Part shown: positions 2,231 to 54,798 of the stretch, piece after piece
How the letters are laid out: each line of letters starts with the position of its first letter
Numbering within the stretch: the stretch's first letter is position 1
IMG/VR virus record: IMGVR_UViG_3300047160_036265
Reading direction: 5' to 3' (one strand)
DNA: 55,242 nt
Source: a virus
Position numbers and translations under genes: made by a program
Notes under the pieces: generated by a model
The model's input: the letters and a program-made list of their open reading frames with translations, nothing else
What the model was told of the DNA's origin: nothing
Database searches by the model: none

Positions 2231-2264
2231 CCACAAACAATAACGGGGCCGACGTGAAGAGAAG

Positions 2265-26050: not shown

Positions 26051-26056
26051 TTTGGT

Positions 26057-26086: not shown

Positions 26087-26283
26087 ACTGTGCGGTGCCG
26101 GATTCCCGATTCTCCACCGGCATCTCCGGGTGCCGGGACCGTGCATCCCGGCCCATTGTGGCTTTGCTCCCCGGCGTGTTAATTTGTGGATCGTGTCTAG
26201 CAGCCGAGTGGTCAAGTCGGCCTCTTTTTACACCAACCGCACAATTTTTGTTTTACAACCCATATATAGGAGAGGAGGGATTC

Positions 26284-26376
26284 ATGCACCCGCAAAGGAT
26301 TTGCAACCACAACATTATCGCATCGGAGGCGGTAAATATCAAGGCCATGTCACAGTTTGGCAGCCTGTTCTTCTAA
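26284..26376 (+). CDS. possible small ORF (30 aa) on the plus strand
   Basis: Near-perfect Shine-Dalgarno AGGAGAGGAGGG 5 nt before the ATG. Preceded by a plus-oriented TTTACAAC. Convergently overlaps the 3' end of the gene at 26350-27237 by 27 nt. Confidence 0.25.
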   Translation: MHPQRICNHNIIASEAVNIKAMSQFGSLFF

Positions 26377-27237
26377 TGCGGCTCTCACTCGTGTGGCGTC
26401 GGCCTTTCCTCCTAGCTCTCTTAAAACCGGGCCGATGAGCGAGTTGAGAGCCTGCTTTTTACCCTTCTTGTAGTCTTCAACCACCTTGGGTGATGCCGCC
26501 AGGTACTTCGCCACGGTGGTCGCAACTACGTCCTCCTGGGCAACACTAAGGATGTCCAACGCAAAGATTGCTGTCAAGGCATCAACGCCGTCCCAGCAAT
26601 AAGGAAACACATCCTTTACCTGCTTGGCGGACAGCACCCCCTTCAGTCGCAGGAACAGCAAGCTAGTTATATCATCAGCCAGCCACGGCAGATAGTCCAG
26701 CACGTCGGCTAATGTGAATTTGGTCTGCTCCAGCTTGGCCTGCAACTCGTTAGTCAGGAAATTAAAAACGAGCTTGCACCAGTCGGTCCACTCGGAAGGT
26801 GGCGCAGGCGGCGGTTTGTACCGGGGCATGTAGCCTTCATTCGGTATTTCCACCCACTCAATATCAGGCCAGTTCCGCTTTTTCTTGAGGCGAAGCCACC
26901 TTTCCAAACTCCCCTGCCCCAACAACCGCCAGCTAAAGCGGCGACTTTGTGGGGGATGTTGAAGCGTTTGCCGCCCCTCAACCTTTTTGCGCTCCGGGGC
27001 TTGGAGATCGGGCACAGTGATAAACATATGCCAATCTGGCACGCTTGCCTCTGCTGGCTTTCCCTGCATCTCGTAATACGGGAACTTCATCAGCCAGTAG
27101 ACTGCCTGACCCAGCTTATCGGTGGACCGCTCCCAATATTCCCGCTCGGCCTCCAGCCAAAAAGAAACGCCGTCTCCCGGTGGGGAGCCGGCGTTTTGCC
27201 ATTTGAAGTAGGCCCGCAGCCTAATGTCGTCAAGCAT
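26350..27237 (-). CDS. DUF2934-like N-terminus fused to a GatB/YqeY-domain C-terminus (about 295 aa)
   Basis: N-terminal IRLRAYFKW...WLEAEREYW. C-terminal VAKYLAASPKVVEDYKKGKKQALNSLIGPVLRELGGKADATRVRAALEEQ resembles the GatB C-terminal/YqeY domain. ATG with GAGGAAGG Shine-Dalgarno. Confidence 0.55.
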   Translation of the reverse strand: MLDDIRLRAYFKWQNAGSPPGDGVSFWLEAEREYWERSTDKLGQAVYWLMKFPYYEMQGKPAEASVPDWHMFITVPDLQAPERKKVEGRQTLQHPPQSRRFSWRLLGQGSLERWLRLKKKRNWPDIEWVEIPNEGYMPRYKPPPAPPSEWTDWCKLVFNFLTNELQAKLEQTKFTLADVLDYLPWLADDITSLLFLRLKGVLSAKQVKDVFPYCWDGVDALTAIFALDILSVAQEDVVATTVAKYLAASPKVVEDYKKGKKQALNSLIGPVLRELGGKADATRVRAALEEQAAKL

Positions 27238-27430
27238 CGGCCTTCCTCGTAATTTCAAATTTCAGCGTGGTGAGATCATAGCCCCGTGCCTGAAGCTCTT
27301 GGCATTGCGCTTCGCTCAAGATGTCGGCCAGGAGCCGGCGATCTGGACCATTGGGGCCGTCGAATAGCAACTGCTTGCCCTTGTGGCGCTCGCCCCGCAG
27401 GTAGCCGTAATAGGCACGGAGCTTCTTCAC
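27230..27430 (-). CDS. hypothetical protein (66 aa)
   Basis: ATGA-coupled to the upstream gene. Confidence 0.45.
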   Translation of the reverse strand: MKKLRAYYGYLRGERHKGKQLLFDGPNGPDRRLLADILSEAQCQELQARGYDLTTLKFEITRKADA

Positions 27431-31599: not shown

Positions 31600-33225
31600 T
31601 CACGCCGCAAATTCCACGAGGTAGCGAAGCTCGAACTGCTCCCGGCTGAAGATGATCCACTCGTTGTTCATGACCTGGGAGTGACCGCCCTTGCCGAAGA
31701 CGCAGTGATGCCCAGCCGGCGGCGAGGTATAACCCCGTGGGCCGGGGGCGACGTGCGGACGGCCCAGGGCCACGTCACCAGCGAACATGAAAGCTTCACG
31801 GCCCCGAACGGAACCACCGCCGGACGACCAGTAGCTTCCACGCAGGGACGTGTAGCCGGCGGACTTTTTCCAGTCGTCCGCCCAATACAATCCCGGCCCG
31901 AACATGGCCCCGGTGATGACCACGCCGACCAACTGGTGCGGCAGGCGCAGGTTTTCACGGAGGATGCCGGTGACGTTCACGGAACGGGTTCCGTGGAACA
32001 AGAGGCCGGTGTTGCTCTCCCGGAAGCGGCGGATGTCGTTGTTATCTTGCAAATCCGCCCGCTCGGCAGGCTGGAACAGGGGCCGCTCGTGAATCGTGGG
32101 CCGGCTGGCGACGATCTTTTCCTGGCTGCCGACCAGCTTGGCCCGGTCGCCGGTGCGCTCGACTCGCCACGCATTCTTGATGCGCATGGCACCGACGCCT
32201 CCGTGACGGTTGGCGGTGGCACGAGGCCACCAGCCATAGAGCCACTTGCCCAGGTCGGTCTTCGGGTCGATCCACTCCATCCACACCGGCATCCCGCCGA
32301 AGGGGTCGTGCTGGTGGGACACGTCATCGACGGCAGCGGCAACACCCAGAGCCGCCTCGAACGCATCCAGGTCGGCCTGCCACAGCAGAATATTGCTGGT
32401 ATTGAGAATCCACTCCTGGGGCGGGCAGTGGAGCCGCTTTTTCTTCGGGATGCGACCGTACATGAGCGCCGTCAGGTGGTTCAAGTCGGCATCGGCCACC
32501 TGATCGTCCACGTTGTCACCCACGACGATGAGGCGCTTCTGGGCTTCGGTGAGGAAGTCACGGGCCTCATCAATCGCCGCCTGAGTGGGGATCGAGTCGT
32601 CGGCCATGCTGCCACGGGTATATTGCACCGTGGCCACGTTCAGGTCACGCAGCAGAGAATGGGTCTGGCTGTCCACCGGACGGCCCGCCGCCTTGATGAC
32701 CTTCTTCTTGGCGCTCTTCTTGTCGTCGGGCTTATCATCCGGTTTGGAATCGGGCTTCTTGGGAGCGCCTTCGCTGTGTTTGATGGTACGGGCATCCGGC
32801 AGGCCGGTGCTACGGGTGGCCATGCTGCGGACGAGGTAGCAGTCCTTGCCGGCACGGGCACGCAACACCCGCTTGCTGGCGACCGTAACCCACTCGCCCC
32901 GCTTGTCGTTCTTGTCGTGCAACTGGCTGGCGAACTCCCGCTGGGCGTCCGACTCACTGGAGCAAACCACGAACTGGAAGTTGGGGTTCTTGGCCCCGGT
33001 GCGCCCCCACTCGAAGTACACAGCCCACTGGCCGCTCGTCTTATGCTTGACGATGGCCCCGTGGTAATACTTGTTGGAGTCCTTGCCGTCCTGCGTGAAG
33101 CAGCCCATGTCTGCGATCTTGCAGTTGTCGAAATCGCCGTCCGTAGTGGCGGGCGGGCCGAAGCACTGCCAGTCGTTCGGGCCGGACCCGTTAGGGTAGG
33201 TGTTCTTTTCGATCTTCGATCCCAT
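31600..33225 (-). CDS. PARP-like ADP-ribosyltransferase (WGR domain plus H-Y-E catalytic domain; about 541 aa)
   Basis: N-terminal WAVYFEWGRTG (WGR). C-terminal LLFHGTRSVNVTGIL, GPGLYWADDWKKSAGY and NEWIIFSREQFELRYLVEF, matching the PARP H-G-S/T, Y and catalytic-E blocks. ATG with GGAGA Shine-Dalgarno, downstream of P8. Confidence 0.8.
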   Translation of the reverse strand: MGSKIEKNTYPNGSGPNDWQCFGPPATTDGDFDNCKIADMGCFTQDGKDSNKYYHGAIVKHKTSGQWAVYFEWGRTGAKNPNFQFVVCSSESDAQREFASQLHDKNDKRGEWVTVASKRVLRARAGKDCYLVRSMATRSTGLPDARTIKHSEGAPKKPDSKPDDKPDDKKSAKKKVIKAAGRPVDSQTHSLLRDLNVATVQYTRGSMADDSIPTQAAIDEARDFLTEAQKRLIVVGDNVDDQVADADLNHLTALMYGRIPKKKRLHCPPQEWILNTSNILLWQADLDAFEAALGVAAAVDDVSHQHDPFGGMPVWMEWIDPKTDLGKWLYGWWPRATANRHGGVGAMRIKNAWRVERTGDRAKLVGSQEKIVASRPTIHERPLFQPAERADLQDNNDIRRFRESNTGLLFHGTRSVNVTGILRENLRLPHQLVGVVITGAMFGPGLYWADDWKKSAGYTSLRGSYWSSGGGSVRGREAFMFAGDVALGRPHVAPGPRGYTSPPAGHHCVFGKGGHSQVMNNEWIIFSREQFELRYLVEFAA

Positions 33226-33261
33226 GACTTTCTCCAAGGGGTGTTGAGGATTCTGGTTATG

Positions 33262-35709: not shown

Positions 35710-35922
35710 CTAGTTGACATTCCCCGATTCTACGTCGGGATTCTTCGGTTGTAAAGCATCATTGACGTGCGGCTCACACCAACAGCCGTGGATGCGGATG
35801 CCTCCGCAGTTACAACAATATTGGTTGAGGAAGCCCCGGATGAATTCGAGTCGGTCTTCGGGGCGGAAGTGCTTCTGCCGTTCCAGAAACTCATCGTAAA
35901 GCTGCTTGGCTGACTCCAGCAT
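35710..35922 (-). CDS. Cys-rich small protein (70 aa)
   Basis: CCNCGGIRIHGCWCEPH motif. ATG with GGAGGGG Shine-Dalgarno. Confidence 0.5.
   Translation of the reverse strand: MLESAKQLYDEFLERQKHFRPEDRLEFIRGFLNQYCCNCGGIRIHGCWCEPHVNDALQPKNPDVESGNVN
35727..35755 (-). promoter_or_regulatory. promoter P9 (inside the 3' end of the upstream gene)
   Basis: TTTACAACC + 17 nt + TAGAAT. Confidence 0.55.
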
Positions 35923-36562
35923 GATCCCCTCCGATCTGGTTCGGGACTATGGCCTGTTCCATCCAGTGAACGGAAGTCTGGACGTGGTTGGGGCGAACAT
36001 ATTTGGCGACGTGACGGGCGAAATCTCCATAAGCGAAGCCCTGGCAGGTCCGCACCACATAACCCTCGCAGGTATCGCCAAAGCAAGACCGGCGGGGCCA
36101 GAGCGATTTGATGGCCTTTTCGTCCCAGATGCCTCGGTACAGTACAGGAACGGTAGGAATGTCAAAAAGTCCAGCCCACTCCACCGTCTCATCCCAGGCC
36201 AGGCAGCCGTTGCTGCCATCATATACGCCGATCAGGTAAAAATACGCTGTGAGCCGGTCGTAGAAAATGCTGTGCTTGGCGTAGACGTTTTCGCCGCAAA
36301 GCCGCCAGCCCTCCGGGATGTTGTGTCGGATCGAGGCGTGGAACTGCTTGAGGAGATTGCGAGACGGGTGGTTCTTGGAGTTGAGGGACCGGGCGTGGTA
36401 GTGGATGCAATACATGGACGTGCATTCACCGTCCATTTTTTCCGTCACCACAACCTCTTGGCCTGCAAAATGATCCACGTCGGCCAGAACCTTGTCGTCC
36501 CGGTCGGATTTCTCGCTCCAGGGCAGGTGCGGTGTTCGGGGATATTTGTACAGGCCGTTCAT
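35891..36562 (-). CDS. RNA ligase family protein (PF09414-like; 223 aa)
   Basis: N-terminal YKYPRTPHL, motif I EKMDGE (KxDG), motif III GENVYAKH, motif IV EGYVVR, motif V KYVRP. Confidence 0.7.
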   Translation of the reverse strand: MNGLYKYPRTPHLPWSEKSDRDDKVLADVDHFAGQEVVVTEKMDGECTSMYCIHYHARSLNSKNHPSRNLLKQFHASIRHNIPEGWRLCGENVYAKHSIFYDRLTAYFYLIGVYDGSNGCLAWDETVEWAGLFDIPTVPVLYRGIWDEKAIKSLWPRRSCFGDTCEGYVVRTCQGFAYGDFARHVAKYVRPNHVQTSVHWMEQAIVPNQIGGDHAGVSQAALR

Positions 36563-37396: not shown

Positions 37397-38395
37397 CTAT
37401 ATACTCCGTTTCCTCGCCGCATTCAGCCAGGACAGGTAGAACTTCTCCATGTGAATGTCAATGAAGGCGTCGTCCCGGCCCCCTTCGACCTTACGGTAAG
37501 GGGCAAAAACCTCGTCCCAAAGGGCCTGGCTCTCCTCACAATATAAGGCCAGGAAGTCCTTCTCTTGGCAGGGTTCCATGTCGCGCAGATTGCACGAACG
37601 GTCGAAGAACTTGATGACCTTGGCTTCCCACGAGACGGACTGCAAATGCTCCCGGTCCATCTTCTTGCGTTCGGCCCGGCGCAACTTCGACCCCTTGCTG
37701 GGGTTGGTCAGTTCCAGCACCAGCTTCAAAACGTCCTCGCCCGCTGTACTGATAATGGCCGAGTGCGGAACGCCGGGGCAGTCCTCCACAACATCATGGA
37801 GCCACGCCGCCTTGCCCATGCGGAGCCACTGGTCCAGAGGGAGATCACGCCGCCACCAGTTGATGCGATCAAATACCTGCGACGGGTGCAGGATGAAATC
37901 GCCCCCACCATATTTCCGCTTCTGGCCTTCATGGGCGCAATAAGCCAGGAGAATGGTATTTCGCAGGCTCTTGTCCATGAACATGCCATGAACGAACATA
38001 TGACAGTTGACGCAGGTGCCGTCGCCGCTGAGGTTCCAACAAGTGTTGCGCCAATCGTGGTTGCACGCCAGCATCTCGGTGAGACGGGTGTGGGCCATCC
38101 GTTCGGCGGCGATCCAGCCCCCGGCCTTGTCGCCGGAGCTTCCGCCCATCACGCTGAAGCGGGCGCGATGGATGGCCTTGTTGTGCCAAAAATCGAGGGC
38201 GGTGATATGTTCTGGGACCGGCACGAACACGGTAATGCCGCAGTTGGGATCGTTGGGGTTCTCGCTCAGAACGTATTCCAGCCCCAGCTTGCGGTTATAG
38301 GAGCAGCGGATGTCAGCATCCTCCGGCCAATCGAGTTGGCACTGGTATTTACCGCCTGGGGGTGGACTGTTGATGATGGGAACGAGGGGTTTCAT
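37397..38395 (-). CDS. RelA/SpoT-type HD-domain protein (small alarmone hydrolase-like) with N-terminal Cys-rich domain (about 332 aa)
   Basis: AHEGQKR...FILHP, AAWLHDVVEDC and FDRSCNLRDM, matching the (p)ppGpp hydrolase HD motifs. ATG (MKPLVP...) overlaps the upstream TAA (TAATG). Confidence 0.7.
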   Translation of the reverse strand: MKPLVPIINSPPPGGKYQCQLDWPEDADIRCSYNRKLGLEYVLSENPNDPNCGITVFVPVPEHITALDFWHNKAIHRARFSVMGGSSGDKAGGWIAAERMAHTRLTEMLACNHDWRNTCWNLSGDGTCVNCHMFVHGMFMDKSLRNTILLAYCAHEGQKRKYGGGDFILHPSQVFDRINWWRRDLPLDQWLRMGKAAWLHDVVEDCPGVPHSAIISTAGEDVLKLVLELTNPSKGSKLRRAERKKMDREHLQSVSWEAKVIKFFDRSCNLRDMEPCQEKDFLALYCEESQALWDEVFAPYRKVEGGRDDAFIDIHMEKFYLSWLNAARKRSI

Positions 38396-38787
38396 TAGTT
38401 GCTCCATGAGGCGAAGATACGTTTGACCGCCAAGACACAGTTGCCTGGGGCTAGGACGGTCAGGACAGGTACGTTGGACGGCATCCGCAGGGTTGAGTGA
38501 ATATCGACCTGATAATCCGCCACAGAAGCGAATACCGGGCAGGCGATGACGATATGAGGGGTATTGGCGGCAACCATGCCGGATAAAGCGTTTGACCGCC
38601 CAGCAACCGTGACGAAGACCACCTGATCCTCATTTTCAAATCTGCCGAGAATTTCGAGTAGTTCCCTGGGGCTTTTATGGGCGGAACAGTAATGGATGGA
38701 AACAGGGAAAGATTCCCGAAAGGGGTTGGCGATTTGTTCAACGTGGTCCTTGTCCTTCTCGGAACCAGCGATAATAACGAGTATCAT
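38395..38787 (-). CDS. PurE-like (AIR carboxylase family) protein (130 aa)
   Basis: IIAGSEKD...SAHKSP...AGRSNALSGMVAANT...IACPV, matching PurE signature blocks. ATGA-coupled. Confidence 0.65.
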   Translation of the reverse strand: MILVIIAGSEKDKDHVEQIANPFRESFPVSIHYCSAHKSPRELLEILGRFENEDQVVFVTVAGRSNALSGMVAANTPHIVIACPVFASVADYQVDIHSTLRMPSNVPVLTVLAPGNCVLAVKRIFASWSN

Positions 38788-39017: not shown

Positions 39018-39511
39018 CCTTGGAACCTCCGCAGGTCCGCAGGAACATCCTCGTAATTGACAACCACACCCTTTTCCTTCTGGATGGCACGAATGGTTTC
39101 GTGGGTATATTGCTGCCGCTTACCCATGCCGCTGAGATCGACGCCGGCTGCGAGGAAGCGCCCGACCGCATATTGTTCCACCGCCTTCTGCCACCGCCAA
39201 TAATAGCGAATGGCTTGGTGGACGCTGGCGTAGCGGCAGCGGTCGTAGAAGTCGTCCTCACGGTGGCTGGGCATGGACTCGTGTTCCCACTCTCCCAGCT
39301 TGTTAAGACAGCCGAAGGTGCCCTTGATGGCCCAAAGCTCCGGCTTGTCCTTATCGCGCCGGCCCATGTTGCGAACATGGACGCCGTGCATTTTCTGGTC
39401 GTCGGAAAAGAACTCCCACCAGAACGGAACGCCGCCCAGCAGAGGCTCAGGGCCGAGATAAAACTCGCTGGCCAACTCCAGCAGGATGCTATCAGAAACT
39501 TTGTCCGCCAT
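39014..39511 (-). CDS. hypothetical protein (165 aa)
   Basis: Protein-like ORF that overlaps the upstream gene. Confidence 0.5.
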   Translation of the reverse strand: MADKVSDSILLELASEFYLGPEPLLGGVPFWWEFFSDDQKMHGVHVRNMGRRDKDKPELWAIKGTFGCLNKLGEWEHESMPSHREDDFYDRCRYASVHQAIRYYWRWQKAVEQYAVGRFLAAGVDLSGMGKRQQYTHETIRAIQKEKGVVVNYEDVPADLRRFQG

Positions 39512-40142
39512 TCTGGTTCTCCAGGGCCAGAATCAGCCGGTCCACGCCAATGGCCCAGCCAATCCCGCAGTCATAGCGCCCGCCGCCCGCCACCTGCTTT
39601 TGGGCACCCAAGCTAGGCACTTCTACCTCGAAGCCGTCTTCAACATAATAGGACAAGCCACGCTTGACGCTCGCGTTGAGGACGTAATTCTCCAGCCCGA
39701 TTGTACGGAGAAACAGGTCCAGAAGTTTAGTCATTTCCTCCTTACTGGCGGTTCCGCCCAGGTTCTCCACCCCGAATTGCCAGAATTCCCGGTAACGACC
39801 GGCCTGGGGACGGTCATAACGGTAACACCGGCTGAGGTAGAAGACCTTGACGGGTTTGGGCAGGACTTTGCTCCAGTCGTTCTTAAATTCCGCCTGGACG
39901 ATGGCGGTGACTTCCGGGATGAGGCAGATTTCCCTGCCGCCCAGGTCGTCAAAGACGTACATCTGGCCCAGGATTTCAGGCCCGGCCTTGTCGGTGAAGA
40001 CTTCCGAAGAGGCCAACAGCGAGGGGAAGAACTCCTGATAGCCTTCAGCAATGGCGGTGTAGCGCAGGGTGTCGGTCGCGTCCCGAAACGCCTTGGCCTT
40101 GGCCCCGAACAGGTGGCGGGTGCCTCTAATCGAGTTTGACAT
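39492..40142 (-). CDS. HisRS-like class II aminoacyl-tRNA synthetase catalytic-core protein (216 aa; no anticodon-binding domain)
   Basis: GTRHLFG...MYVFDDLGGREICLIPEVTA (motif 1 region), CYRYDRPQAGRYREFWQFG (motif 2), GGGRYD (motif 3). Confidence 0.7.
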   Translation of the reverse strand: MSNSIRGTRHLFGAKAKAFRDATDTLRYTAIAEGYQEFFPSLLASSEVFTDKAGPEILGQMYVFDDLGGREICLIPEVTAIVQAEFKNDWSKVLPKPVKVFYLSRCYRYDRPQAGRYREFWQFGVENLGGTASKEEMTKLLDLFLRTIGLENYVLNASVKRGLSYYVEDGFEVEVPSLGAQKQVAGGGRYDCGIGWAIGVDRLILALENQNGGQSF

Positions 40143-41091
40143 CTCCGCTCATCAACCCTTCTCGAATGCGTTCCAGCCCCCGCTCCCGCAGTTGCCGGAC
40201 TCGTTCCTTGGTCAAGCCCAAGTCCTTGCTAATCTCCTTCAAGGTACGCTTTGTGCCGCCATTCTTCAAGCCAAACCACTGTTCGATGACGTATCGCTTG
40301 CGGTCGTCTTCATCGCCCAAGGTCTTCATCAGGCGGGCCACGTTCTTCTTGACAAGCTCCTTCCCCTCCTCATAGTCCCGCAGGTCTTCGTCGCTGGTGT
40401 CCAGGCGGGTGTCATAAATCCCGTCATCAAAACCAGTCACAAACCGCTCATTAAAGGTTCGCTCACCGGCCAGATCACGGGTGAAGTTGTTAAGCAGAAC
40501 CCAGGTGGCGTAGGTGGAGAATTTGAAACCACGGGTCCAATCGAAGCAGTCCACGGCCTTAACGATGTTCATATAAGCATCGGCAAGCAAGTCGTGCATG
40601 AGGCTGTGGGAGCGGTAAAAGTCCGTCCGCTTCCGCAACACCTGAGCGGCGAGGCGGGTGTTGGAACACACGAGTTGGTGCTTCACAACCTCGGCTTGTT
40701 TCAGACATAACTCAACCCGCTCAATAGATTTCAGCGCCCGCTCGTGTTGCTCCGGGGTCGGGGCCTTGGAGCGCCGCAAGGTCCGGGTCAGACGACGGGC
40801 TTTGTACTTGAGGAAGTTATATTTGCGAAACAAATGCCGCTCCTGGTCTTTATCCAGCAGCGGCTCCTGGTATAATGGCATCAGTTCGCTAGGAATATTC
40901 TGGTGCTTGAGCTTGGCGACTTCCTGGCGCTTCTCGTTGAATTCATCCATCCGGGGCATCTCAGCCAGGATTTCCGCCTGCATAGAGCGGAGATCGAAGT
41001 CCGGCGACTTGAATATCTTGAACTTCGGGCTGCTCACATAACTCACCAATTCTTTCGCGCGCTGCGCAATGTCATCCTTTACTGCCAACAT
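40126..41091 (-). CDS. sigma-70 family sigma factor (321 aa)
   Basis: Region 2 DLLADAYMNIVKAVDCFDWTRGFKFSTYATWVL. Region 4 TLKEISKDLGLTKERVRQLRERGLERIR. AAAGGAGG Shine-Dalgarno. Own P10 promoter. Confidence 0.85.
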   Translation of the reverse strand: MLAVKDDIAQRAKELVSYVSSPKFKIFKSPDFDLRSMQAEILAEMPRMDEFNEKRQEVAKLKHQNIPSELMPLYQEPLLDKDQERHLFRKYNFLKYKARRLTRTLRRSKAPTPEQHERALKSIERVELCLKQAEVVKHQLVCSNTRLAAQVLRKRTDFYRSHSLMHDLLADAYMNIVKAVDCFDWTRGFKFSTYATWVLLNNFTRDLAGERTFNERFVTGFDDGIYDTRLDTSDEDLRDYEEGKELVKKNVARLMKTLGDEDDRKRYVIEQWFGLKNGGTKRTLKEISKDLGLTKERVRQLRERGLERIREGLMSGDVKLD

Positions 41092-41168: not shown

Positions 41169-41576
41169 TTACGGAACGGGCACCAAGAAAGAGTTGAGCG
41201 CCCGGACGATATTCCGCACCTTATATCCCTTGGGGTGGTCCACGACCACCGTTATTTCCTGATCGGCCACGGCCCAGGGCTTGCCGGCGGCGTTGCTTTC
41301 GATGATGACGTAGACCATAGAGTTGTGGGTATAGCGGCGGCTATAACCCAGGCGGTCCCACAGTTCCTTGGCCTGCGGGGATTGGAAAATAAAAAACTCG
41401 TTGCGATCCAGCCTGGAGCGACCCCGCAAGCTAGGTGCGCCGTTAGGCGGGTCGTCATACTCCACCACCATTTCCGGCCAGTGGGCTTTGCACAGACCGA
41501 GAATGCCCTTCTCGATCTGTGCATATTTCTTGCCTTCCGGCCAGGTGTAGAGCAGATCGTAACCGCCGATTTCCAT
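41169..41576 (-). CDS. hypothetical protein (135 aa)
   Basis: ATG overlaps the upstream stop. Confidence 0.5.
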   Translation of the reverse strand: MEIGGYDLLYTWPEGKKYAQIEKGILGLCKAHWPEMVVEYDDPPNGAPSLRGRSRLDRNEFFIFQSPQAKELWDRLGYSRRYTHNSMVYVIIESNAAGKPWAVADQEITVVVDHPKGYKVRNIVRALNSFLVPVP

Positions 41577-43138
41577 TATTTACCGCAGGTTGGGTCGTAT
41601 TTGTGCATCATCTGATTGATGGTAGCCAGGTCCAGCGGTTTGACCAGGAAATCATGGAATCCGGCGTCCTGGGCACGCTGGCGGTCCTTCTCCTGGCCGA
41701 AGCCGGTGACGGCGATGACTTTTGTTTCCGGCACGAGGCGGATCAACTCCTGGCAGACCTTGTAGCCGTCCATGTAGGGCAGGCCAATGTCCAGCAGCAC
41801 GATATTGGGTACGAACTCGGTCGCGCTCTTCAGGGCCGCTGGGCCATCGTTGGCCACCCACACGTCGTAGCCCTGCATCCGCAGCATGGCCACCATGCTG
41901 TCCGCCGCATCCACATTGTCATCCACGACGAGGATGCGGCAGTCCTTGGTAGGGGCGATGGGGAATGACGCAGGTTCCCCGGTATCCTCCTTGCGTGGTG
42001 AACCGCCCTCGATGGATTCCGGTACGGGAACCTCGTCGCCCACATCGCTTACGGGGAATTCGATGCTGAAGGTGGACCCCAGGTTGAGGCCCGGCGAATG
42101 AGCGGCAACGGTTCCTCCCTGAAGCTCCGTCAACTGCTTGACGAGGCTCAGACCTACTCCCAGACCGCCGTGGGTCTGGTATTCGCCCCGGCGCTCGGCC
42201 TGCACGAACAGGTCGAAAATACGGGGCAGCATGGTTTCGGAGATGCCGATGCCGGTATCCACGACTTCGATTTTTACCTTCTTCTGGTCATCCGAGAGGA
42301 GGCAGTTGAGACGGATTTTTCCACCCGGTTCCGTATATTTGGCAGCGTTGTTGAGCAAATTGGAAATCGCCTGCTCGACACGGGGCGCATCGCCCACCAT
42401 CCAGATCGCCTCGGACGGGATGGAAATGTATAAGGAGTGATAGCGGGTGTCGATGGCGGGCCGTGACTGGTCGATGGCGTTGGAAATGGCCCGCTGAAGC
42501 TGGACTGGCTCCTGCTTGATATTGATTTTGCCCCGGCTGATGCGGGCCATGTCCAGCAAGTCATCCAGCAACCGGCCCATATGCTTGACCTGGCGCTCGA
42601 TGATATTACGGTGGTCGCGCAGTACGGCGTCCTGGTTGCCGTCGCGCATCCGGGACACCTGGAGCGACGACAGGATTGGGGCCAGCGGGTTGCGCAGTTC
42701 GTGGGACAGAACGGCCAGGAACTCATCCTTGCGGCGGTCGGCCTCGGCCAGTTCGTCAATCCACTTCTTGCGTTCGCTGATGTCCCGAATAACGGCGACA
42801 ATCCCCTCCTGGTCGCCGTGGTTGAACTTGGACAGGGACATCTCGACGGCGAATTCCTCACCGTTACGACGCCGGCCCACCGTCTCGACCAGTGAGCCGA
42901 TCATGGGGCCTTCCCCGGTGGCCTTATAGTGGACGATACCCCGTGCCATCTCCTCCTGCATACGCAGCGGCACGAAGTCCGCACAGGCAACAACCTTGTT
43001 GACCATCTCCTCCTGCCGATAGCCGAACATCCGTTCCGCCGCCGGGTTGAAATGGGTGATGAGCAAGTCCTGGTTGGCGATGATGATGGCATCCTGGGCG
43101 CTGTCGAGGATGGCTTGCAACATGGCTATATCCTCCAT
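41576..43138 (-). CDS. hybrid sensor histidine kinase (PAS-HisKA-HATPase-REC; about 520 aa)
   Basis: H-box SHELRNPL, N/G boxes LLNNAAKY, DTGIGI, GGLGVGL. C-terminal receiver ILVVDDN...LLDIGLPYMDG...KPLD. TGATG coupling. Confidence 0.8.
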   Translation of the reverse strand: MEDIAMLQAILDSAQDAIIIANQDLLITHFNPAAERMFGYRQEEMVNKVVACADFVPLRMQEEMARGIVHYKATGEGPMIGSLVETVGRRRNGEEFAVEMSLSKFNHGDQEGIVAVIRDISERKKWIDELAEADRRKDEFLAVLSHELRNPLAPILSSLQVSRMRDGNQDAVLRDHRNIIERQVKHMGRLLDDLLDMARISRGKINIKQEPVQLQRAISNAIDQSRPAIDTRYHSLYISIPSEAIWMVGDAPRVEQAISNLLNNAAKYTEPGGKIRLNCLLSDDQKKVKIEVVDTGIGISETMLPRIFDLFVQAERRGEYQTHGGLGVGLSLVKQLTELQGGTVAAHSPGLNLGSTFSIEFPVSDVGDEVPVPESIEGGSPRKEDTGEPASFPIAPTKDCRILVVDDNVDAADSMVAMLRMQGYDVWVANDGPAALKSATEFVPNIVLLDIGLPYMDGYKVCQELIRLVPETKVIAVTGFGQEKDRQRAQDAGFHDFLVKPLDLATINQMMHKYDPTCGK

Positions 43139-43539
43139 CACCCCTGGTCAGGGGGCAGTTCCGTAAAGAAGTCCTCGGATTGCTCGACAACCTCTTGCCC
43201 CCCTTGTCGTGCAGCGAGTTTGTGACCCAGACGGAGCAGACCTAGCGCGATATGCGGAGGAAGGTTATGAACCTCCATTTGCAGGTCAATGCCCATAAGC
43301 TCGAACCTGGGCAGCAAGAGAACGAATTGCGGTTGCGGCCTCTTGCGCAACTCGGCCAGCAGTTGATCGGTTGTAGCCAACTCCAGGTCGAGTTGCAAGG
43401 GGTCTTTTCCCACAAGGACGTTCAGACGTTGCTGCAAGTCATGTGCCCGAACTTTGTAGCGGTACAAACGAAAAACCAGATAACCCCCCATCGCCGTGAG
43501 CAGCAGCGCCGTGAGGCTGGCAACTACGAGGTTGAACAT
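43138..43539 (-). CDS. membrane-anchored protein (about 133 aa)
   Basis: Internal ATG (MFNLVVAS...) with AAGGAGAGGG Shine-Dalgarno. N-terminal TM helix. Immediately upstream of the hybrid kinase. Confidence 0.5.
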   Translation of the reverse strand: MFNLVVASLTALLLTAMGGYLVFRLYRYKVRAHDLQQRLNVLVGKDPLQLDLELATTDQLLAELRKRPQPQFVLLLPRFELMGIDLQMEVHNLPPHIALGLLRLGHKLAARQGGQEVVEQSEDFFTELPPDQG

Positions 43540-43765: not shown

Positions 43766-44314
43766 TTAGAGGCGACGGATCACTTGGTTGACCAGCCTCT
43801 CACGCCACGAGAAATTGGTCCAATCCGGTGCCTTCTCGAATGAGAAGTCGTGAGGAAAAGCAGTGTATTTTACCACGCTGCCATCTCGTGTCAATAATAA
43901 TGGTTGCACGCCCTTCACAAATTCTTCATCCACGCTCACAACCCACGGCTCGACATATATGCCGTGCTGAGGCCGACAAGCCTGGCCGATGGTCAGATCG
44001 AGCATTTCATTTTGCGAAACCACGACCAAATGGCCGGACCACTTCCCTTCAGTATAACCATATCCCAGGCCAACGCTATAGGAACCGTCCGTCTGGAAAG
44101 CTTCTTCCAGAGCGGCGGTAGTGCGTGGTGCGCGTCCTTCGCTCATGCGCCTGACCAGCGGCTCATTATAAATAAGGGCCTTCACCGACAGCGGTTGAGC
44201 GGGGATTTTGAAAAAATGCAGCACGTCGAGGGCGACCCGACTGGCAAGAATGCAGCAATCGGGCCGGTGGTTGCATAGTACCTCCGGGATCAACGTCCGA
44301 AGCCGCTCCAACAT
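43766..44314 (-). CDS. hypothetical protein (about 182 aa)
   Basis: Internal ATG (MLERLRTL...) with AAGGGG Shine-Dalgarno. Confidence 0.5.
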   Translation of the reverse strand: MLERLRTLIPEVLCNHRPDCCILASRVALDVLHFFKIPAQPLSVKALIYNEPLVRRMSEGRAPRTTAALEEAFQTDGSYSVGLGYGYTEGKWSGHLVVVSQNEMLDLTIGQACRPQHGIYVEPWVVSVDEEFVKGVQPLLLTRDGSVVKYTAFPHDFSFEKAPDWTNFSWRERLVNQVIRRL

Positions 44315-45277: not shown

Positions 45278-45889
45278 CTATATTACTTCCGTAGTGCCGT
45301 CAAACGAAACCGCAAACAGGTTGAGCAGCAAGTTTTCCAGTCCAACTGCCTGCCGCTCCACCAGACCGGCACCCAGGCAATATATACAGAAGCCAATGAA
45401 GGTTTCCCACAACGCAGAGGGTCCGCACAGCCATGATGCGCTGAGGGGATGGCCGTATTTCTTGACGACCCCCTCCTCGATCAAGCTGCTGGCCTTCACC
45501 CGGTTTTCAATCGTTACGACCGGGAAGACCATGTTGAAGGTTTGCTGGGGCTGAGCCTGGCAGACGAGCCTGTTGCCGGCCAGCGCAGACACTTTCCTGA
45601 TGTCGGTAAGCGGATGATTGGGCGGGCAAAACAGCCAAGGCCCTGAAGGTAGGTCGCTAACCAGGAGACTGGCGTAACGATCAATCGCCCGGTTGTCCAG
45701 ATCGGTCTGCCCAGGGACGCAGACCACTCCCAACTCCTTTAGTTTTTCTTTGCCATCCGGCGGTATTCCATAGTCCACTGCCGCTCCGGGCAGGCTCAAA
45801 GTCTTCAGCGACCTGGCCCAATTAACACCGCTGACTCTCCACGAAGTTTCATCGAACTCGGTGATGACGGTCGGGTTTATTTCATTCAT
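45278..45889 (-). CDS. hypothetical protein (about 203 aa)
   Basis: Internal ATG (MNEINPT...) with AAGGAGA Shine-Dalgarno. Confidence 0.5.
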   Translation of the reverse strand: MNEINPTVITEFDETSWRVSGVNWARSLKTLSLPGAAVDYGIPPDGKEKLKELGVVCVPGQTDLDNRAIDRYASLLVSDLPSGPWLFCPPNHPLTDIRKVSALAGNRLVCQAQPQQTFNMVFPVVTIENRVKASSLIEEGVVKKYGHPLSASWLCGPSALWETFIGFCIYCLGAGLVERQAVGLENLLLNLFAVSFDGTTEVI

Positions 45890-48037: not shown

Positions 48038-49333
48038 TTATGCGGCCTTGACCGGCAGCAGTTTGACTTCGCCCCGCACAACTTCGGGGGTCACGACCCA
48101 CTTGCCGCCCTTGTGGTCAGGCAGTTCGTACATGATGTCGAGCATGATCTCCTCAACCACGCCCCGCAAAGCACGCGCACCCGTATCCCGTTCGATGGCG
48201 AGCTTGGCGATTTCCTTGACAGCACCGGGCGTAAACTCCAGGTCGGCCCCGTCCATGCGGAAAATCTTCATGTATTGCTTGAGCAGGGCGTCCTTGGGGT
48301 CGGTCAGAATCTTGCAGAGGAATTCCTCGTTCAGTTCGCAAAGCGTGGTGATGACCGGGAGCCGCCCGACGAATTCGGGGATCATGCCGAACTCGATCAG
48401 GTCGTCGCTTGTCACCTTGCCCATGATGGCATCGTTCTGTTCCTGCTCTGTGCCCTCCTCGTGTTTGACGCCGAAGCCGATGCTCCGCTTGCCGGTGCGG
48501 CGGGCGATGATGTCCTTGAGGCCGGTGAACGTGCCGCCGCAGATGAACAGAATGTTGGTGGTGTCCACCTGGATATATTGTTGCTCCGGGTGCTTGCGCC
48601 CGCCCTGTGGGGGGACGTTCGCCAACGTGCCTTCCAACATCTTCAGAAGGGCCTGCTGGACCCCTTCGCCCGACACGTCACGGGTGATGGAAATGTTCTG
48701 GTTGGTTTTGCCGATCTTGTCAACCTCATCGAGATAAATGATGCCGCACTGAGCGGCCTCGATGTTAAAATCTGCCGACCGAAGCAGCCGCAGCAGCAGG
48801 TTCTCAACGTCTTCGCCAACGTAGCCCGCCTCTGTCAACGTGGTAGCGTCCCCGATGGCGAATGGCACGTCCAGCTTCTTGGCCAGGGTCCGTGCCAGGA
48901 GGGTCTTGCCAGAACCAGTAGGGCCGATCAACAAGATGTTGCTCTTGTCGATGTTGACCTCGGCCAAGGGGTCCGCCTCACCATCCTTTCTGGTAAGCGT
49001 GTGGTCCTTCAACCGCTTGTAGTGGTTGGCGACGGCCACGGCCAGAATCTTCTTGGCCCGGTCCTGGCCGATAACGTACTGGTCCATGTGCGCGACCAGT
49101 TCCTTCGGAGAAGGGATGCGCTGCGGAAGGTACTGGTCGGACAATTCGCGCTTGAGATTTTGCTTCCTGACAATCTCCTCGCAGATGCCGACGCAGCCGG
49201 CGCAGATGAACACCTTATCCTCGTCGGGTGTTCGTCCGTTGGCCAGCGCCCCTGGACCTTCGATCAGCGGTCCCACTACCTTGTGGGACTGCTTGCAAAA
49301 GTCACAATGCTGATCCCTCTTCTTCCTCGTCAT
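48038..49333 (-). CDS. clpX: ClpX ATP-dependent protease ATPase subunit
   Basis: N-terminal C4 zinc finger (CDFC...CAGC), Walker A GPTGSGKT, and ClpX-typical blocks. ATG (MTRKKRDQH...) with AAGAGG Shine-Dalgarno. Confidence 0.85.
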
Positions 49334-49374
49334 GCTTGCCTCTTTCGGGTTGTGGGTAGTTGATTGCACATCTC

Positions 49375-49413: not shown

Positions 49414-50481
49414 TCAAGACTTTGCTCGCCGCCTGACCTCTTCCAAGGTCCGCTTACAGTGAGCCTTAAAGTCTTCGTCGGCCAAGGTTTCCACGATTTT
49501 CTCAACCTCTTCCAGCGGCTTTCGCTCCTCCAGGGCCGTCAGGATCAGGTCCAGGTCTTTGTTCTGCTTGCGGTAACAGGCCACTTCCAGTTCGGAAAGG
49601 GCATTGCTGACACGCTCCGGGTTGGGGTAGGGCTGGTCCAGGGCCTCCATCACTTCCTCGAAGTCGGGATCGCCGGTCAATTTGCAAATTGTCAGGGTCT
49701 TCAACACGGCCTTGCGCCCGGACTCAAGCTCCAGAAAATTGGTCGCCGCCTCCGCTTCCTCGTACTTCCCGGCAGCAGCCAGCAGAAACACCTGGCGCAA
49801 CCGGCGGAATTCGGCATGGAGCTTAACGACGTTCAACTCGTTCTGCGCCATCAAGGCAATCAGAGGCATGATGAGGGCCATCAGCCACATCCGAGTTGCC
49901 AGGGCAAAGAGAAACAGGAGTATACAGGTCAACTGGCCAACCCGTACCGCCCACCATGTTGCCCGGCGGTAATCCATGAAATGACCCAGGAACGACCGCA
50001 GGATGCGGCCACCGTCCATCGGATAGGCCGGTGCCAGGTTGAAAACGATCAGGATGAAGTTGATATAGGCGAGGGTGTAGGCGAAGGAAACCGCCTGCGC
50101 CCAGCCCAAGGACGCGAACACCAGCACCAGCACCCCGAACAGGCCGCACAGGACGACATTCACCATCGGCCCCATCAGTGTGACGAAGAACTCTTTTTTC
50201 GGCTCGTCCGGCCCCATCTGGATGGAAGCAATGCCGCCGATGGGGTAAATAGTGATCCTTTCCACCGGAACATCAAAGTATTTGGCAGTGAGGACGTGGC
50301 CGAATTCATGCAGGATGACGCAGGCATATACTGCCAGCATCAATACTAACACCAAGGGGTTGGGCAGCAACAACAGGAACATGAGAGTCCATGTCCAATG
50401 CGCATACAAGGGAACTCCGAAATAAGTACCCAGATGCGGATTCAGAACCTTGCTCACTCCGTTCCAGAAGGTAGTATTCAT
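49414..50481 (-). CDS. M50 family site-2 protease-like membrane metalloprotease
   Basis: HEFGH in a TM helix and NLAPAYPMDGGRIL (LDG motif). AAGGA Shine-Dalgarno. Confidence 0.75.
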   Translation of the reverse strand: MNTTFWNGVSKVLNPHLGTYFGVPLYAHWTWTLMFLLLLPNPLVLVLMLAVYACVILHEFGHVLTAKYFDVPVERITIYPIGGIASIQMGPDEPKKEFFVTLMGPMVNVVLCGLFGVLVLVFASLGWAQAVSFAYTLAYINFILIVFNLAPAYPMDGGRILRSFLGHFMDYRRATWWAVRVGQLTCILLFLFALATRMWLMALIMPLIALMAQNELNVVKLHAEFRRLRQVFLLAAAGKYEEAEAATNFLELESGRKAVLKTLTICKLTGDPDFEEVMEALDQPYPNPERVSNALSELEVACYRKQNKDLDLILTALEERKPLEEVEKIVETLADEDFKAHCKRTLEEVRRRAKS

Positions 50482-52327: not shown

Positions 52328-52846
52328 TTAGGCGGCGTCCTTCTTGAAGTACCGCATGGAGTCGTTGTCCCGCACCAGAACCTTCTTCTTCATCATGCGG
52401 CCCACGGCCTGCTGGACCATGTTGTGGAAGTTCTTGCTCGTGGAGACGTAGCCGGCCTTGAGCGCCAACTCCACCATCTCGGCCAGGCTCAATCCATGCT
52501 TGGCCTTCTCGACCAGTTCAAGGAGCAGTTCTTCCAGGGGCGGCTGCTTGTCCACCCCGGACTCGGCCTTGGACGGACGGCCCCTGCCCCGCTTGTCGGC
52601 ATCGCTCGCCGCCGCCGGCTTGCTGCGAGGAGCGCGAGGGGCAGAGGGCTTGGTCTTGGCCTCGGTCGCCTTGCCCACGGTAACGGTCGGTGCCGGCTTG
52701 GTCGGGGCACCACTGACGGGGGTGCTGTTGCCGCCGGGGAGGATGACACCAAGCTCTGCGATCTTGCTGTCGATCTCGTCCAGTTCCTTTTGCTTCGCCA
52801 CCTTTTGCTGAATTAGCTCGATGGCCTGTTCCAAATCAGTAGCCAC
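52328..52846 (-). CDS. AT-hook DNA-binding protein with N-terminal coiled coil (about 172 aa), GTG start
   Basis: KRGRGRPSK AT-hook. GTG (V8 of the track ORF) with AGGAGA Shine-Dalgarno. Confidence 0.45.
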   Translation of the reverse strand: MATDLEQAIELIQQKVAKQKELDEIDSKIAELGVILPGGNSTPVSGAPTKPAPTVTVGKATEAKTKPSAPRAPRSKPAAASDADKRGRGRPSKAESGVDKQPPLEELLLELVEKAKHGLSLAEMVELALKAGYVSTSKNFHNMVQQAVGRMMKKKVLVRDNDSMRYFKKDAA

Positions 52847-52935
52847 TGGCAGGTTCTCCTGTCCCACGTTTTATTTTCCAATCACCTGCTCCGGTGGGAC
52901 TTGCCGGCAGCCGGCGAACAACCGCCCTCTATCTC

Positions 52936-52964
52936 ACTATACGCCAATACTTGTGGGTGTAAAG
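52936..52964 (-). promoter_or_regulatory. promoter P12
   Basis: TTTACACCC + 16 nt + TATAGT. Confidence 0.55.
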
Positions 52965-53045
52965 CACAGACGGAGAGCTTTTTCAAAAATAGTGATCCGA
53001 TACTCGGTTATTTCCAGCACAGGGATTATCAGAAAGGAAACAACT

Positions 53046-53252
53046 ATGCTCGTGCTATCGAGAAAGAAGGACGAAACGATCATCCTCAAAGGCCCCGACA
53101 TGAAGGAAATAAAAATCACCGTGGTGCGCATCGACAACCGCAACAAGGTGAGGCTGGGGATCGAGGCCGATAAGGAAGTCACGGTCCTCCGCTCCGAACT
53201 CAACGGCATCGGTCACGGCAATGGCAACGGCAATCATGCCGGCGAAGCCTAA
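53046..53252 (+). CDS. csrA: CsrA/RsmA family RNA-binding regulator (68 aa)
   Basis: MLVLSRKKDETIILKGPDMKEIKITVVRIDNRNKVRLGIEADKEVTVLRSEL aligns to the CsrA consensus (MLILTRK.GE...VRIGI.AP..V.V.R.E). AAAGGA Shine-Dalgarno. The only well-supported plus-strand gene. Confidence 0.7.
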   Translation: MLVLSRKKDETIILKGPDMKEIKITVVRIDNRNKVRLGIEADKEVTVLRSELNGIGHGNGNGNHAGEA

Positions 53253-53737
53253 AGCGACAAAGCCTTGGTGATGACTTCTCGAACCCGCCGGTACTCCGGG
53301 CCATTGATGTCCCAGAAATAACGGGCAAAATAACACACCGCTTCAGCGGAGTATTCGGTGCCCTTCGTCCAGCCTGCCGCACGGACTTCCTCGGCCCAGC
53401 GAACAATCTGGTCGTCAGTGGCCTGGCTGCCTTCCCACGGGTGGCCTTCGGGCTTGCAGGGTGGCTTGCCCGCCGGGACATGGACAACCGCACGGCCATC
53501 ACCCCCACTCCGGGCCTGGCGGGTTTCCACGGCTGGCGGGGTTTCGACAGGCGGGGTATCGACGGCTGGGGACTGTTCCGCATCTGAAGGTGGGGACGAG
53601 CCGGGCAGGATACCCCCGGCGGTGGCCGCAGTGTCGGCCAACTTGGTAGGATAAAAATTGTGACCGCACTCACACCGCTGGGTCCGTAACCCGACCGACT
53701 TCTTGCACTTCGGGCATTCCTTATGACCACGGGGCAT
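53249..53737 (-). CDS. zinc-ribbon protein (162 aa)
   Basis: CPKC...CECGH. GGAGGAAGG Shine-Dalgarno. Downstream of P13. Its 3' end overlaps the csrA stop convergently. Confidence 0.55.
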   Translation of the reverse strand: MPRGHKECPKCKKSVGLRTQRCECGHNFYPTKLADTAATAGGILPGSSPPSDAEQSPAVDTPPVETPPAVETRQARSGGDGRAVVHVPAGKPPCKPEGHPWEGSQATDDQIVRWAEEVRAAGWTKGTEYSAEAVCYFARYFWDINGPEYRRVREVITKALSL

Positions 53738-53820: not shown

Positions 53821-54798
53821 TCAGGTCAGCAGGTCGCTGATGGAGTCCTCATCGTGAATACGGCGGATCGCCTGGGCGAAAAGGCGGGTGGTGTTGATAA
53901 TCTTGACGTTTTTCATGACATCCTCGCTCAAGCGAAAGGGATGGATCGAGTCGGTAATGACGATGCGTTCGATACCGGCCAGATGTTCATTGGCCTTGCC
54001 CACGCACAGGGCATGAGCGGCGCAGACGCCCCATACCTGCCCGCCGTCCCGCTCCACAGCCCGCCTGGCCTCGAACATAGTCTTGGCACTGGCAATCATG
54101 TCGTCATATATAACTACGAGTTTATCCTTGACCTCGCCGCTGATCCGGTGGCCCCGGATAGTACGCCCGGCATGTTCTTTGTCCAACACGGCAACCTCTA
54201 TTTCCACGTCGAGGTACTGGCTGAGTTTATTGCGGAAATAGCGGCAACGAGGAGCGCTACCGCTGTCCGGGCCAAGGACGCAGAGCCGCTTGGGTTCGGC
54301 GCAGTTGTCCGCTACATAACGGGCAATCAGATTTTTGGCCTCAAGATGGTCGGTGGGAACGTCGAAGGAACACTGGAACGCCGCCAGGTTATGCACGTCC
54401 ATCGTCAGGATGCGGTCCACCCCGACACTCTGGAACAGGTACTTGATGTACTTCAGCGTGATCGGGGCACGGCTCTCCGTCTTGCGGTCTTGCCGTCCGT
54501 AGCAAAGGTAGGGAATGACCGCCGTGACCCGGCGGGCAGAGGCGTCCTTGAGACTGCCGATAAAAAACAGCAACTTGAGCAGTTTATCGGAAACGGACTC
54601 CTGGTTGCAAGAGTAAAGGGACTGAATTACGAACACGTCCGCCCCACGGACGTTGACGTTGGACCGGACGTAATACTCCGAGTCATCGAAGCAGGTTTCC
54701 TCGTGTTTGGCAAGGGAACCGTCAGGTCCAAGGTGCGTGGCGACCTGCTCGGCGTAAGCTGCCGTGCCGTGAAGTCCGAATAAACGTAATCCGTTCAC
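53821..54798 (-). CDS. prs: ribose-phosphate pyrophosphokinase (PRPP synthetase), GTG start
   Basis: LRLFGLHG..., RVTAVIPYLCYGRQDRK and VGVDRILTMDVH blocks. GTG with AAGGAG Shine-Dalgarno, overlapping the folD stop (GTGA). Confidence 0.8.
   Translation of the reverse strand: MNGLRLFGLHGTAAYAEQVATHLGPDGSLAKHEETCFDDSEYYVRSNVNVRGADVFVIQSLYSCNQESVSDKLLKLLFFIGSLKDASARRVTAVIPYLCYGRQDRKTESRAPITLKYIKYLFQSVGVDRILTMDVHNLAAFQCSFDVPTDHLEAKNLIARYVADNCAEPKRLCVLGPDSGSAPRCRYFRNKLSQYLDVEIEVAVLDKEHAGRTIRGHRISGEVKDKLVVIYDDMIASAKTMFEARRAVERDGGQVWGVCAAHALCVGKANEHLAGIERIVITDSIHPFRLSEDVMKNVKIINTTRLFAQAIRRIHDEDSISDLLT

Follow-up and report, generated by a model that had tools for sequence, protein, structure and literature searches.

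A csrA gene of huge bacteriophages encoding a derived, highly conserved CsrA protein

CsrA is among the main post-transcriptional global regulators of bacteria. The subject of this report is a viral member of the family, a csrA gene at positions 53046 to 53252 (plus strand) of IMG/VR record IMGVR_UViG_3300047160_036265, a stretch of 55,242 nucleotides that was analysed as a whole and is called the window below. A viral CsrA is not new as a concept (PMC7366521, PMC8450108, PMC11879866), and our finding changes no concept: 30 of 2,517 phage genomes carried a CsrA homologue in one study (PMC7366521), phage homologues in GenBank and IMG/VR have been surveyed and suppression of host defence proposed for phage RsmA (PMC8450108), and phage PTXU04 made smaller plaques when its csrA homologue was knocked down (PMC11879866), which was the one functional test of a phage CsrA that our literature search found. 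The present case is that of a huge-phage lineage which keeps a derived CsrA under stronger constraint than ClpX or nucleotide-synthesis genes, in a fixed and peculiar position, and the same search found no paper describing either the derived subfamily or the fixed arrangement. CsrA is not mentioned in the main text of a survey of huge phages (PMC7162821), and at least one supplementary GenBank file of that survey has an automatically annotated 'carbon storage regulator homolog' of the canonical type. With only 68 residues, the window protein is a good candidate for asking what a phage gains from a CsrA of its own, and it could add a post-transcriptional regulator to the translation-related functions of huge phages (PMC7162821).

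Like the CsrA-family genes published from Pseudomonas aeruginosa phage F116, Burkholderia phage DC1 and E. coli phage PTXU04 (gp28; PHROG 9500), the window gene is phage-borne. The published proteins have been proposed to manipulate host post-transcriptional control or defence (PMC7366521, PMC8450108, PMC11879866). According to their descriptions they closely resemble bacterial RsmA/CsrA, and they come from phages of ordinary size, whereas the window protein is a separate derived lineage that is tied to huge phages and fixed in position, because a tblastn search of 50,697 GenBank phage records gave LR756511.1 (an 'uncultured phage', 595,163 bp, complete) as the sole match at E<=1e-3. To the canonical CsrA, RsmA and RsmE proteins (E. 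coli CsrA, PDB 1Y00; Pseudomonas RsmA and RsmE) the window protein is tied by its Pfam family, its MLxLxR start, the RNA-binding residues of strands beta1 and beta5, its small size and the presence of GGA in the leader of its own messenger RNA (mRNA). It differs from them in being phage-encoded, in being 38% identical to E. coli CsrA with a four-residue insertion between beta2 and beta3 and a beta3-beta4 turn that is one residue longer, in having Leu in place of His43, and in lacking the C-terminal amphipathic helix; in addition, neither the window nor the complete relative LR756511.1 showed a Csr/Rsm sponge RNA, unlike canonical Csr systems.

With CsrA of the Bacillus type the window protein shares an MLVLSRK N-terminus, a C-terminal extension beyond the core and 44% identity over the core, the B. 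subtilis sequence used for this figure being approximate. In contrast to the Bacillus CsrA-FliW system, no fliW or flagellar genes were found in the window, and the tail of the window protein is unconserved and predicted to be disordered. The CsrA paralogues of plasmids and of integrative and conjugative elements (ICEs), such as S. meliloti pMBA19a CsrA and Legionella ICE CsrT (PMC7366521), are likewise borne by mobile elements and presumed to take part in cross-talk with the host Csr/Rsm system; the window CsrA departs from these in its derived sequence type and in lying on a huge phage of lytic type, not on a conjugative element.

The csrA gene and its product

The csrA open reading frame (ORF) runs from an ATG at 53046 to a TAA at 53250-53252 on the plus strand and encodes the 68-residue protein MLVLSRKKDETIILKGPDMKEIKITVVRIDNRNKVRLGIEADKEVTVLRSELNGIGHGNGNGNHAGEA, which falls into two parts.

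53046..53252, plus strand: csrA coding sequence, 68 codons and TAA (Pfam CsrA, PHROG 9500, ENA and JGI calls, purifying selection)
53046..53201, plus strand: conserved CsrA core, residues 1-52, with the RNA-binding positions, the GPDM insertion and the RIDNRNKV turn (alignment to 1Y00 and relatives)
53202..53249, plus strand: variable C-terminal tail NGIGHGNGNGNHAGEA, in place of the canonical C-terminal helix (unconserved columns; AlphaFold2 model)

The product matches Pfam family PF02599 (CsrA) with E=3.9e-16 and 59.2 bits (gathering cutoff 27), residues 1-52 being aligned with profile positions 1-47 of 53, and it matches PHROG 9500 ('CsrA-like regulator') with E=1.5e-9. The solved structures in the PDB that match it are CsrA/RsmA chains only. 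At the level of sequence the family match is far beyond chance, and the first-pass annotation of the window, which had called a csrA homologue here from the sequence alone, is confirmed.

We compared the 156-nt core of csrA among 23 distinct relatives as a test of coding. Mean pairwise identity at codon positions 1, 2 and 3 is 0.75, 0.88 and 0.39, respectively, so that third positions are near random, while the 52-residue protein core averages 77% identity and all 23 relatives keep the plus-strand frame open. Synonymous divergence (dS) is saturated in 213 of the 253 pairs, and the ratio of nonsynonymous to synonymous divergence (dN/dS) is ~0.09 where it can be computed. Both csrA and the gene that converges on it (below) were called identically, with the same overlap, by the ENA and JGI gene callers on four independent contigs. 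By these comparisons csrA is a real gene that is selectively maintained. An antisense ORF of 93 residues at 53055..53336 (minus strand) was rejected, since the in-phase antisense frame has stops in all 23 relatives. Another antisense frame over the core is open in 21 of the 23 because the CsrA protein is without Tyr, His and Gln, and it is therefore no evidence for an antisense gene.

The gene had also been singled out as the only convincing plus-strand gene in 55 kb, and it is indeed the sole plus-strand gene that can be supported in the window. A GC-frame gene call puts every other credible gene on the minus strand, save two small plus-strand ORFs, and in independent gene calls for three stretches (about 9.6-18.3 kb, 32.7-39.3 kb and 42.8-55.2 kb) csrA is the one gene that is not on the minus strand. 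The plus-strand candidates 43904..44278 and 45449..45646 were rejected; they have no family matches, and independent calls put minus-strand genes there.

Mutagenesis and structures have placed the RNA-binding surface of E. coli CsrA at L2, L4, R6, R7, V40, V42, R44 and I47. In a HMMER alignment, residues 1-52 of the window protein correspond to residues 1-47 of E. coli CsrA (1Y00); L2, L4 and R6 are identical in the two proteins, V45, V47 and R49 correspond to V40, V42 and R44, and the two other positions carry conservative replacements (K7 for R7 and L52 for I47). Conservation of Arg44, which had been proposed as the check on the csrA assignment, is thus found in Arg49. The listed RNA-binding positions are invariant in the 120 closest representatives of 90% clusters; the core as a whole is near-invariant in all 120, and 28 positions are invariant in an alignment of 50 relatives. 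The cluster representatives that HMMER can detect number 616. Judged by alignment, the RNA-binding surface of the csrA product is intact.

The same alignments place the protein in a derived and very highly conserved CsrA subfamily. Its members have a four-residue insertion in the beta2-beta3 loop (K-G-P-D/N-M; GPDM in the window) and a beta3-beta4 turn longer by one residue (RIDNRNKV as against VKGNQV or IRGDKV), and E. coli His43 is replaced by Leu in the window protein. Residues P17, D30, N33 and K34, which are specific to the subfamily, show the same invariance as the RNA-binding positions. Core identity between the window protein and its relatives is 67-90%, in genomes of 30-58% G+C (GC), and the products of neighbouring genes are less conserved relative to those of the window (ClpX mostly 52-62%, phosphoribosyl pyrophosphate (PRPP) synthetase 40-52%, FolD 64-74%).

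The tail is another matter. A C-terminal Gly/Asn-rich extension, GIGHGNGNGNHAGEA, is present as first reported, part of it being encoded by a (GGCAAY)x3 repeat at 53217-53234, but it does not stand as a conserved functional feature: residues after 52 vary freely, each relative has a different tail of ~6-32 residues after L52, and the Gly/Asn type is common to the nearest relatives only. In the alignment it is lineage-specific, and from the structure model it is probably disordered. The AlphaFold2 monomer model (mean predicted local distance difference test score, pLDDT, 73.5) has core strands and no helix, and residues 56-68 score below 50; strands beta1 and beta5 are unresolved in it because a monomer was modelled. 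A Foldseek search of this monomer model against the PDB gave no meaningful match, as expected for a chain that folds only as an intertwined dimer.

We also observed that the Gly/Asn tail resembles the Gly-rich linkers of tandem, two-domain CsrA proteins (P0136, P0148, P0151, P0153, P0164, P0168, P0170 and P0239). Such tandem proteins make up many of the 50%-cluster representatives and could be single-chain dimers, and in P0239 two CsrA domains seem to be fused to an N-terminus that resembles ribosomal protein S17.

Carrier, neighbourhood and leader of csrA

Identical CsrA proteins are encoded on several metagenomic contigs, the longest of 669,797 bp. Samples that contain the phage are ENA ERZ27257208 and ERZ27262824 and JGI 3300032261. 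A pattern scan of IMG/VR gave 60 loci, and the 28 closest of these (64-87% identical) lie on contigs of 33-533 kb. The order of the neighbouring genes, which lie on the strand opposite to csrA, is kept in the IMG/VR loci and in LR756511.1, the recurrent neighbours being genes for a metallophosphoesterase, ClpX, an M50 protease, an AT-hook protein, a zinc-ribbon protein, PRPP synthetase and FolD. Because the same order recurs in phage loci, the genes of cellular type at the window's right end belong to the phage and are not a host flank. As far as can be judged from these relatives, the element that bears csrA is viral, and the gene is carried by a huge bacteriophage.

A further scan, with the peptide VLSRKKDE as the pattern, covered 185,579 species of bacteria and archaea, each represented by one genome. 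A single close relative was found (85% identical), on a 13.7-kb contig binned with a Neisseriaceae metagenome-assembled genome (RXKI01000134.1, 'Neisseriaceae bacterium', our locus L066). This contig has the order ClpX, AT-hook gene, csrA, zinc-ribbon gene, prs, and because this is the huge-phage gene order, the contig is probably phage DNA that was wrongly binned with a bacterial genome. The next best matches are at most 60% identical and come mostly from Planctomycetota, in a ranking that is biased by the VLSRKKDE pattern.

The surroundings of csrA in the window are as follows.

52328..52867, minus strand: AT-hook protein gene, divergent from csrA; the ENA call starts at 52846 (172 residues); weak AT_hook Pfam match
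52868..53045, no strand: divergent intergenic region from the AT-hook gene to csrA, which must hold the csrA promoter; a spacer is also present in relatives
52936..52963, minus strand: promoter-like site TTTACA-N16-TATAGT for the divergent minus-strand gene (from sequence)
53017..53028, plus strand: second leader GGA site GCACAGGGAUUA, with GGA starting at -23; candidate autoregulatory site that resembles the CsrA consensus
53033..53039, plus strand: Shine-Dalgarno sequence AAAGGAA, with GGA starting at -10 (53036-53038) and a 7-nt spacer to the ATG (from sequence)
53249..53252, no strand: CTAA overlap of csrA and the zinc-ribbon gene, 4 nt, no room for a terminator (sequence; ENA and JGI calls)
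53249..53737, minus strand: convergent zinc-ribbon-like gene, 162 residues (ORF; CxxC...CxC motif; weak UPF0547 match)
53821..54798, minus strand: PRPP synthetase gene (prs), within a conserved csrA, prs and folD neighbourhood (Pfam; synteny in relatives)

The convergent zinc-ribbon-like gene encodes its CxxC...CxC motif at the N-terminus and ends in a TAG at 53249-53251. An overlap of the two stops by 2-3 nt had been reported; the stop codons do overlap, sharing 2 nt, and the genes as such overlap by the 4 nt CTAA. Zinc-ribbon homologues occupy the same position in five related loci (L001, L002, L005, L008 and L066). More widely the convergent partner varies by lineage, being a zinc-ribbon gene, a gene of ~100 codons, prs or a gene of ~500 codons, while in 17 of 25 relatives the distance from the csrA stop to the convergent stop is between -24 and +12 nt; in a more distant one (P0149, ~72% identical) csrA overlaps prs itself by 4 nt, and folD follows. 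On the other side, a minus-strand ORF divergent from csrA is found in 22 of 25 distinct relatives, and in those 22 the spacer upstream of csrA measures 106-353 nt (mostly ~180-350 nt). The orientation of csrA opposite to its neighbours is kept in all close relatives. Two loci that have a spacer after csrA (L003 and L013) have a terminator-type hairpin in it, and since such hairpins directly follow csrA where there is a spacer, they support the idea that csrA is a short transcription unit of its own. By comparison of sequences, csrA thus keeps a fixed position and orientation in this huge-phage lineage, as a lone opposite-strand unit next to prs-folD.

Equivalents of the promoter-like site in the divergent spacer, of the form TTTACA-N16/17-TAATAT, are present in L001 and L013, and the same type of site flanks a tRNA gene in the window. 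An upstream motif resembling 'ACT..TTAATA' was seen by eye in relatives; it could not be defined well enough and was not used. The divergent AT-hook protein has a coiled-coil N-terminus, an AT-hook (KRGRGRPSK) and a C-terminal domain of ~50 residues that is conserved beside csrA in relatives, and the two neighbours may form a regulatory pair in which it is the DNA-binding member.

The published CsrA binding consensus is RUACARGGAUGU, and E. coli csrA is known to repress its own translation. The Shine-Dalgarno sequence of the window gene, described as good in the first-pass annotation, is AAAGGAA, 7 nt before the ATG, and all the related leaders that were examined have a Shine-Dalgarno GGA between -8 and -11, mostly at -9 or -10. 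A second GGA occurs at -28..-16 in 11 of 23 distinct leaders, as against 3.1 +/- 1.6 in shuffled sequences, and CA.GGA in 9 of 23 as against 0.25 expected, in a set in which the sequences are related to one another and about half are without a second GGA. By analogy, the dual leader GGA sites are suggestive of translational autorepression of csrA.

No antagonist of the kinds known for CsrA was found with the gene, as had been remarked before. Rfam models found only a tRNA in the window, and only tRNAs and transfer-messenger RNAs (tmRNAs) in the complete LR756511.1, with no Csr/Rsm sponge RNA in either. The search for small RNAs with GGA-rich repeats that had been proposed as a check was likewise negative in both: scans of GGA density in the window, the flanks of ~30 related loci and all of LR756511.1 pointed to coding regions or the csrA leader only, and GGA-rich 'non-coding gaps' on the minus strand (for example 22128-22657) proved to be minus-strand genes missed by a crude gene caller. 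FliW (PF02623) was not found among ~55 window proteins by Pfam or in precomputed Pfam results for independent gene calls, nor were flagellar genes found in the window. In LR756511.1 the tRNA matches number ~58, most of them in clusters at 200-300 kb and 427-438 kb, and there are two matches to tmRNA.

A second csrA copy was sought in the window and in LR756511.1, and each has a single csrA. Elsewhere in IMG/VR, contigs IMGVR_UViG_3300032053_005312 (L002/L039) and IMGVR_UViG_3300032334_002567 (L008/L053) each carry a derived csrA and a canonical, helix-bearing csrA on opposite strands, 7-8.5 kb apart.

What the phage CsrA may do

The best explanation, to which we give a probability of roughly 0.7, is that this is a real csrA of a huge phage whose product acts as an ordinary CsrA-type RNA-binding regulator; by analogy, its mechanism is probably the ordinary CsrA one. 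Like other CsrA proteins the product would form an intertwined homodimer, whose targets would be GGA motifs in the leaders of mRNAs, typically overlapping or adjoining the Shine-Dalgarno sequence; by binding there during infection it would repress or re-programme the translation and stability of mRNAs of the host, of the phage or of both. The two GGA sites in the csrA leader may allow CsrA to reduce the translation of its own mRNA as well. The first-pass annotation had suggested that a viral CsrA could globally rewire host translation at GGA-motif mRNAs or titrate host CsrA antagonists; its observation of the gene is confirmed and its reading of the product as a CsrA is supported, a global rewiring of host translation being a conjecture.

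A number of points weigh against so ordinary a reading. The canonical CsrA architecture of five strands and a C-terminal alpha helix is not present in full, the amphipathic helix being absent, and with the replacement of His43 by Leu this means that activity or specificity could differ. Transcription of the gene, dimerisation of the product and its binding to RNA are things that we infer from sequence. A sigma-70-like promoter for csrA was sought upstream on the plus strand, and none was found. The leader GGA motif is not distinctive within this genome, because other genes share it: most genes of this phage have Shine-Dalgarno sites that contain GGA, and 6 of 25 other genes here also carry a GGA at -28..-16, as counted on leader sequences. 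The leaders of the window gene and of four relatives fold no more stably than shuffled sequences and have no hairpin that would present a GGA, nor is GGA preferentially kept inside the coding region, Lys before Asp or Glu being encoded by AAG and AAA in a ratio of 21:20, as against 52:46 elsewhere. Finally, no virion gene is among the family-assigned genes of the window.

Some of these features might instead mean that the fold has been neofunctionalised, the GPxM insertion, the RIDNRNKV turn and the loss of the helix having led to another RNA specificity or another partner (for example the ribosome or phage-specific leaders) in place of classical repression at GGA sites. The invariance of P17, D30, N33 and K34, equal to that of the canonical RNA-binding residues, would fit such a change, as would a conservation that is extreme for a phage protein and the many helix-less 'LRSEL' CsrA-like proteins and tandem fusions in metagenomes; yet the residues that contact GGA RNA in canonical CsrA are all retained, the Pfam match extends over positions 1-47 of the 53 in the profile, and nothing indicates another ligand, so that we consider this unlikely. 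Quite unlikely, in our view, is a decoy role, in which the phage protein would soak up host antagonists (sponges of the CsrB/RsmZ type, or FliW) or heterodimerise with host CsrA and so shift host CsrA activity. With its RNA-binding face intact, the protein would bind sponge RNAs; since no phage-encoded sponge or FliW was found, an antagonist could come only from the host; and the two IMG/VR contigs with both a derived and a canonical CsrA argue that the two are not redundant. In Bacillus and Geobacillus, however, FliW binding uses the C-terminal region of CsrA, and titration of FliW is unlikely because that region is missing or variable in the window protein; titration of sponges, for its part, is not mutually exclusive with repression of mRNAs.

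It might also be the arrangement rather than the protein that matters, the terminator-less convergence of csrA with the zinc-ribbon gene, prs and folD serving as a cis-antisense or transcriptional-interference switch. The opposite orientation in all close relatives, and 3' ends that lie within -24 to +12 nt in 17 of 25 despite differing partners, speak for this, but CsrA is under very strong purifying selection and so cannot be just a by-product, a terminator separates the genes in lineages that have a spacer and removes the overlap of transcripts, and tight packing is common in phages; we regard it as very unlikely. That csrA is an artefact or misassigned, being either a false ORF opposite a real gene or a bacterial gene from a stretch of host DNA or prophage flank, is hardly credible. 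The 93-residue antisense ORF does exist and many window genes are cell-like (prs, FolD, ClpX, histidine kinases, a sigma factor), but the in-phase antisense frame is interrupted in every one of the 23 relatives and the openness of the other is explained by the missing Tyr, His and Gln, the cell-like neighbours recur in synteny on IMG/VR contigs and on LR756511.1, and the subfamily occurs in no bacterial species genome bar the one contig of phage gene order that is probably mis-binned.

If csrA is taken as a phage gene for an ordinary CsrA-type regulator, two further steps are speculative: loss of the C-terminal region may blind the protein to antagonists of the FliW type, and terminator-less convergent transcription may gate csrA expression. 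Together they would make the helix-less, insertion-bearing CsrA a positionally fixed, phage-specific translation switch that is insensitive to host protein antagonists and gated by convergent transcription, in a clade of huge phages of ~200-670 kb and 30-58% GC. We hold this fuller picture to be doubtful; if true, it would add a post-transcriptional layer to the proposed translation-takeover toolkit of huge phages.

Other genes in the window

The window has a tRNA gene at 2264..2337 (minus strand) with anticodon CTA, of the amber-suppressor type (labelled Pyl by ARAGORN), which is also matched as a tRNA by Rfam and is flanked by promoter-like sites of the form TTTACA-N17-TAyAAT. TAG is still the stop codon in 11 of 75 genes of the gene call. 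Read-through of the TAG of the zinc-ribbon gene by this tRNA was considered and set aside, as it would add only 4 residues.

Regulatory genes are notably concentrated here: besides csrA there are genes for a sigma-70-family protein and for two histidine kinases with PAS domains, of which one is a hybrid that also has a receiver domain. The kinase and sigma-family genes are listed here with further genes noted in the window, all on the minus strand.

22658..24073 and 41576..43141, minus strand: PAS-domain histidine kinases
40126..41091, minus strand: sigma-70-family protein
39492..40142, minus strand: HisRS-like fragment
26350..27258, minus strand: GatB/YqeY-domain protein
48038..49369, minus strand: ClpX
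49414..50481, minus strand: M50 protease
1657..2178, minus strand: AlgH-like protein
24135..24704, minus strand: NUDIX protein
38395..38787, minus strand: PurE/AIRC protein
31600..33237, minus strand: PARP-like catalytic domain with a WGR domain
21111..22127, minus strand: ADP-ribosylglycohydrolase
24965..26215, minus strand: T4 Rnl1-type RNA ligase
35891..36562, minus strand: second RNA ligase

The seven entries from the HisRS-like fragment to the PurE/AIRC protein are further cell-like genes, and the last four, for the PARP-like protein, the glycohydrolase and the RNA ligases, suggest functions in ADP-ribosylation and RNA repair.

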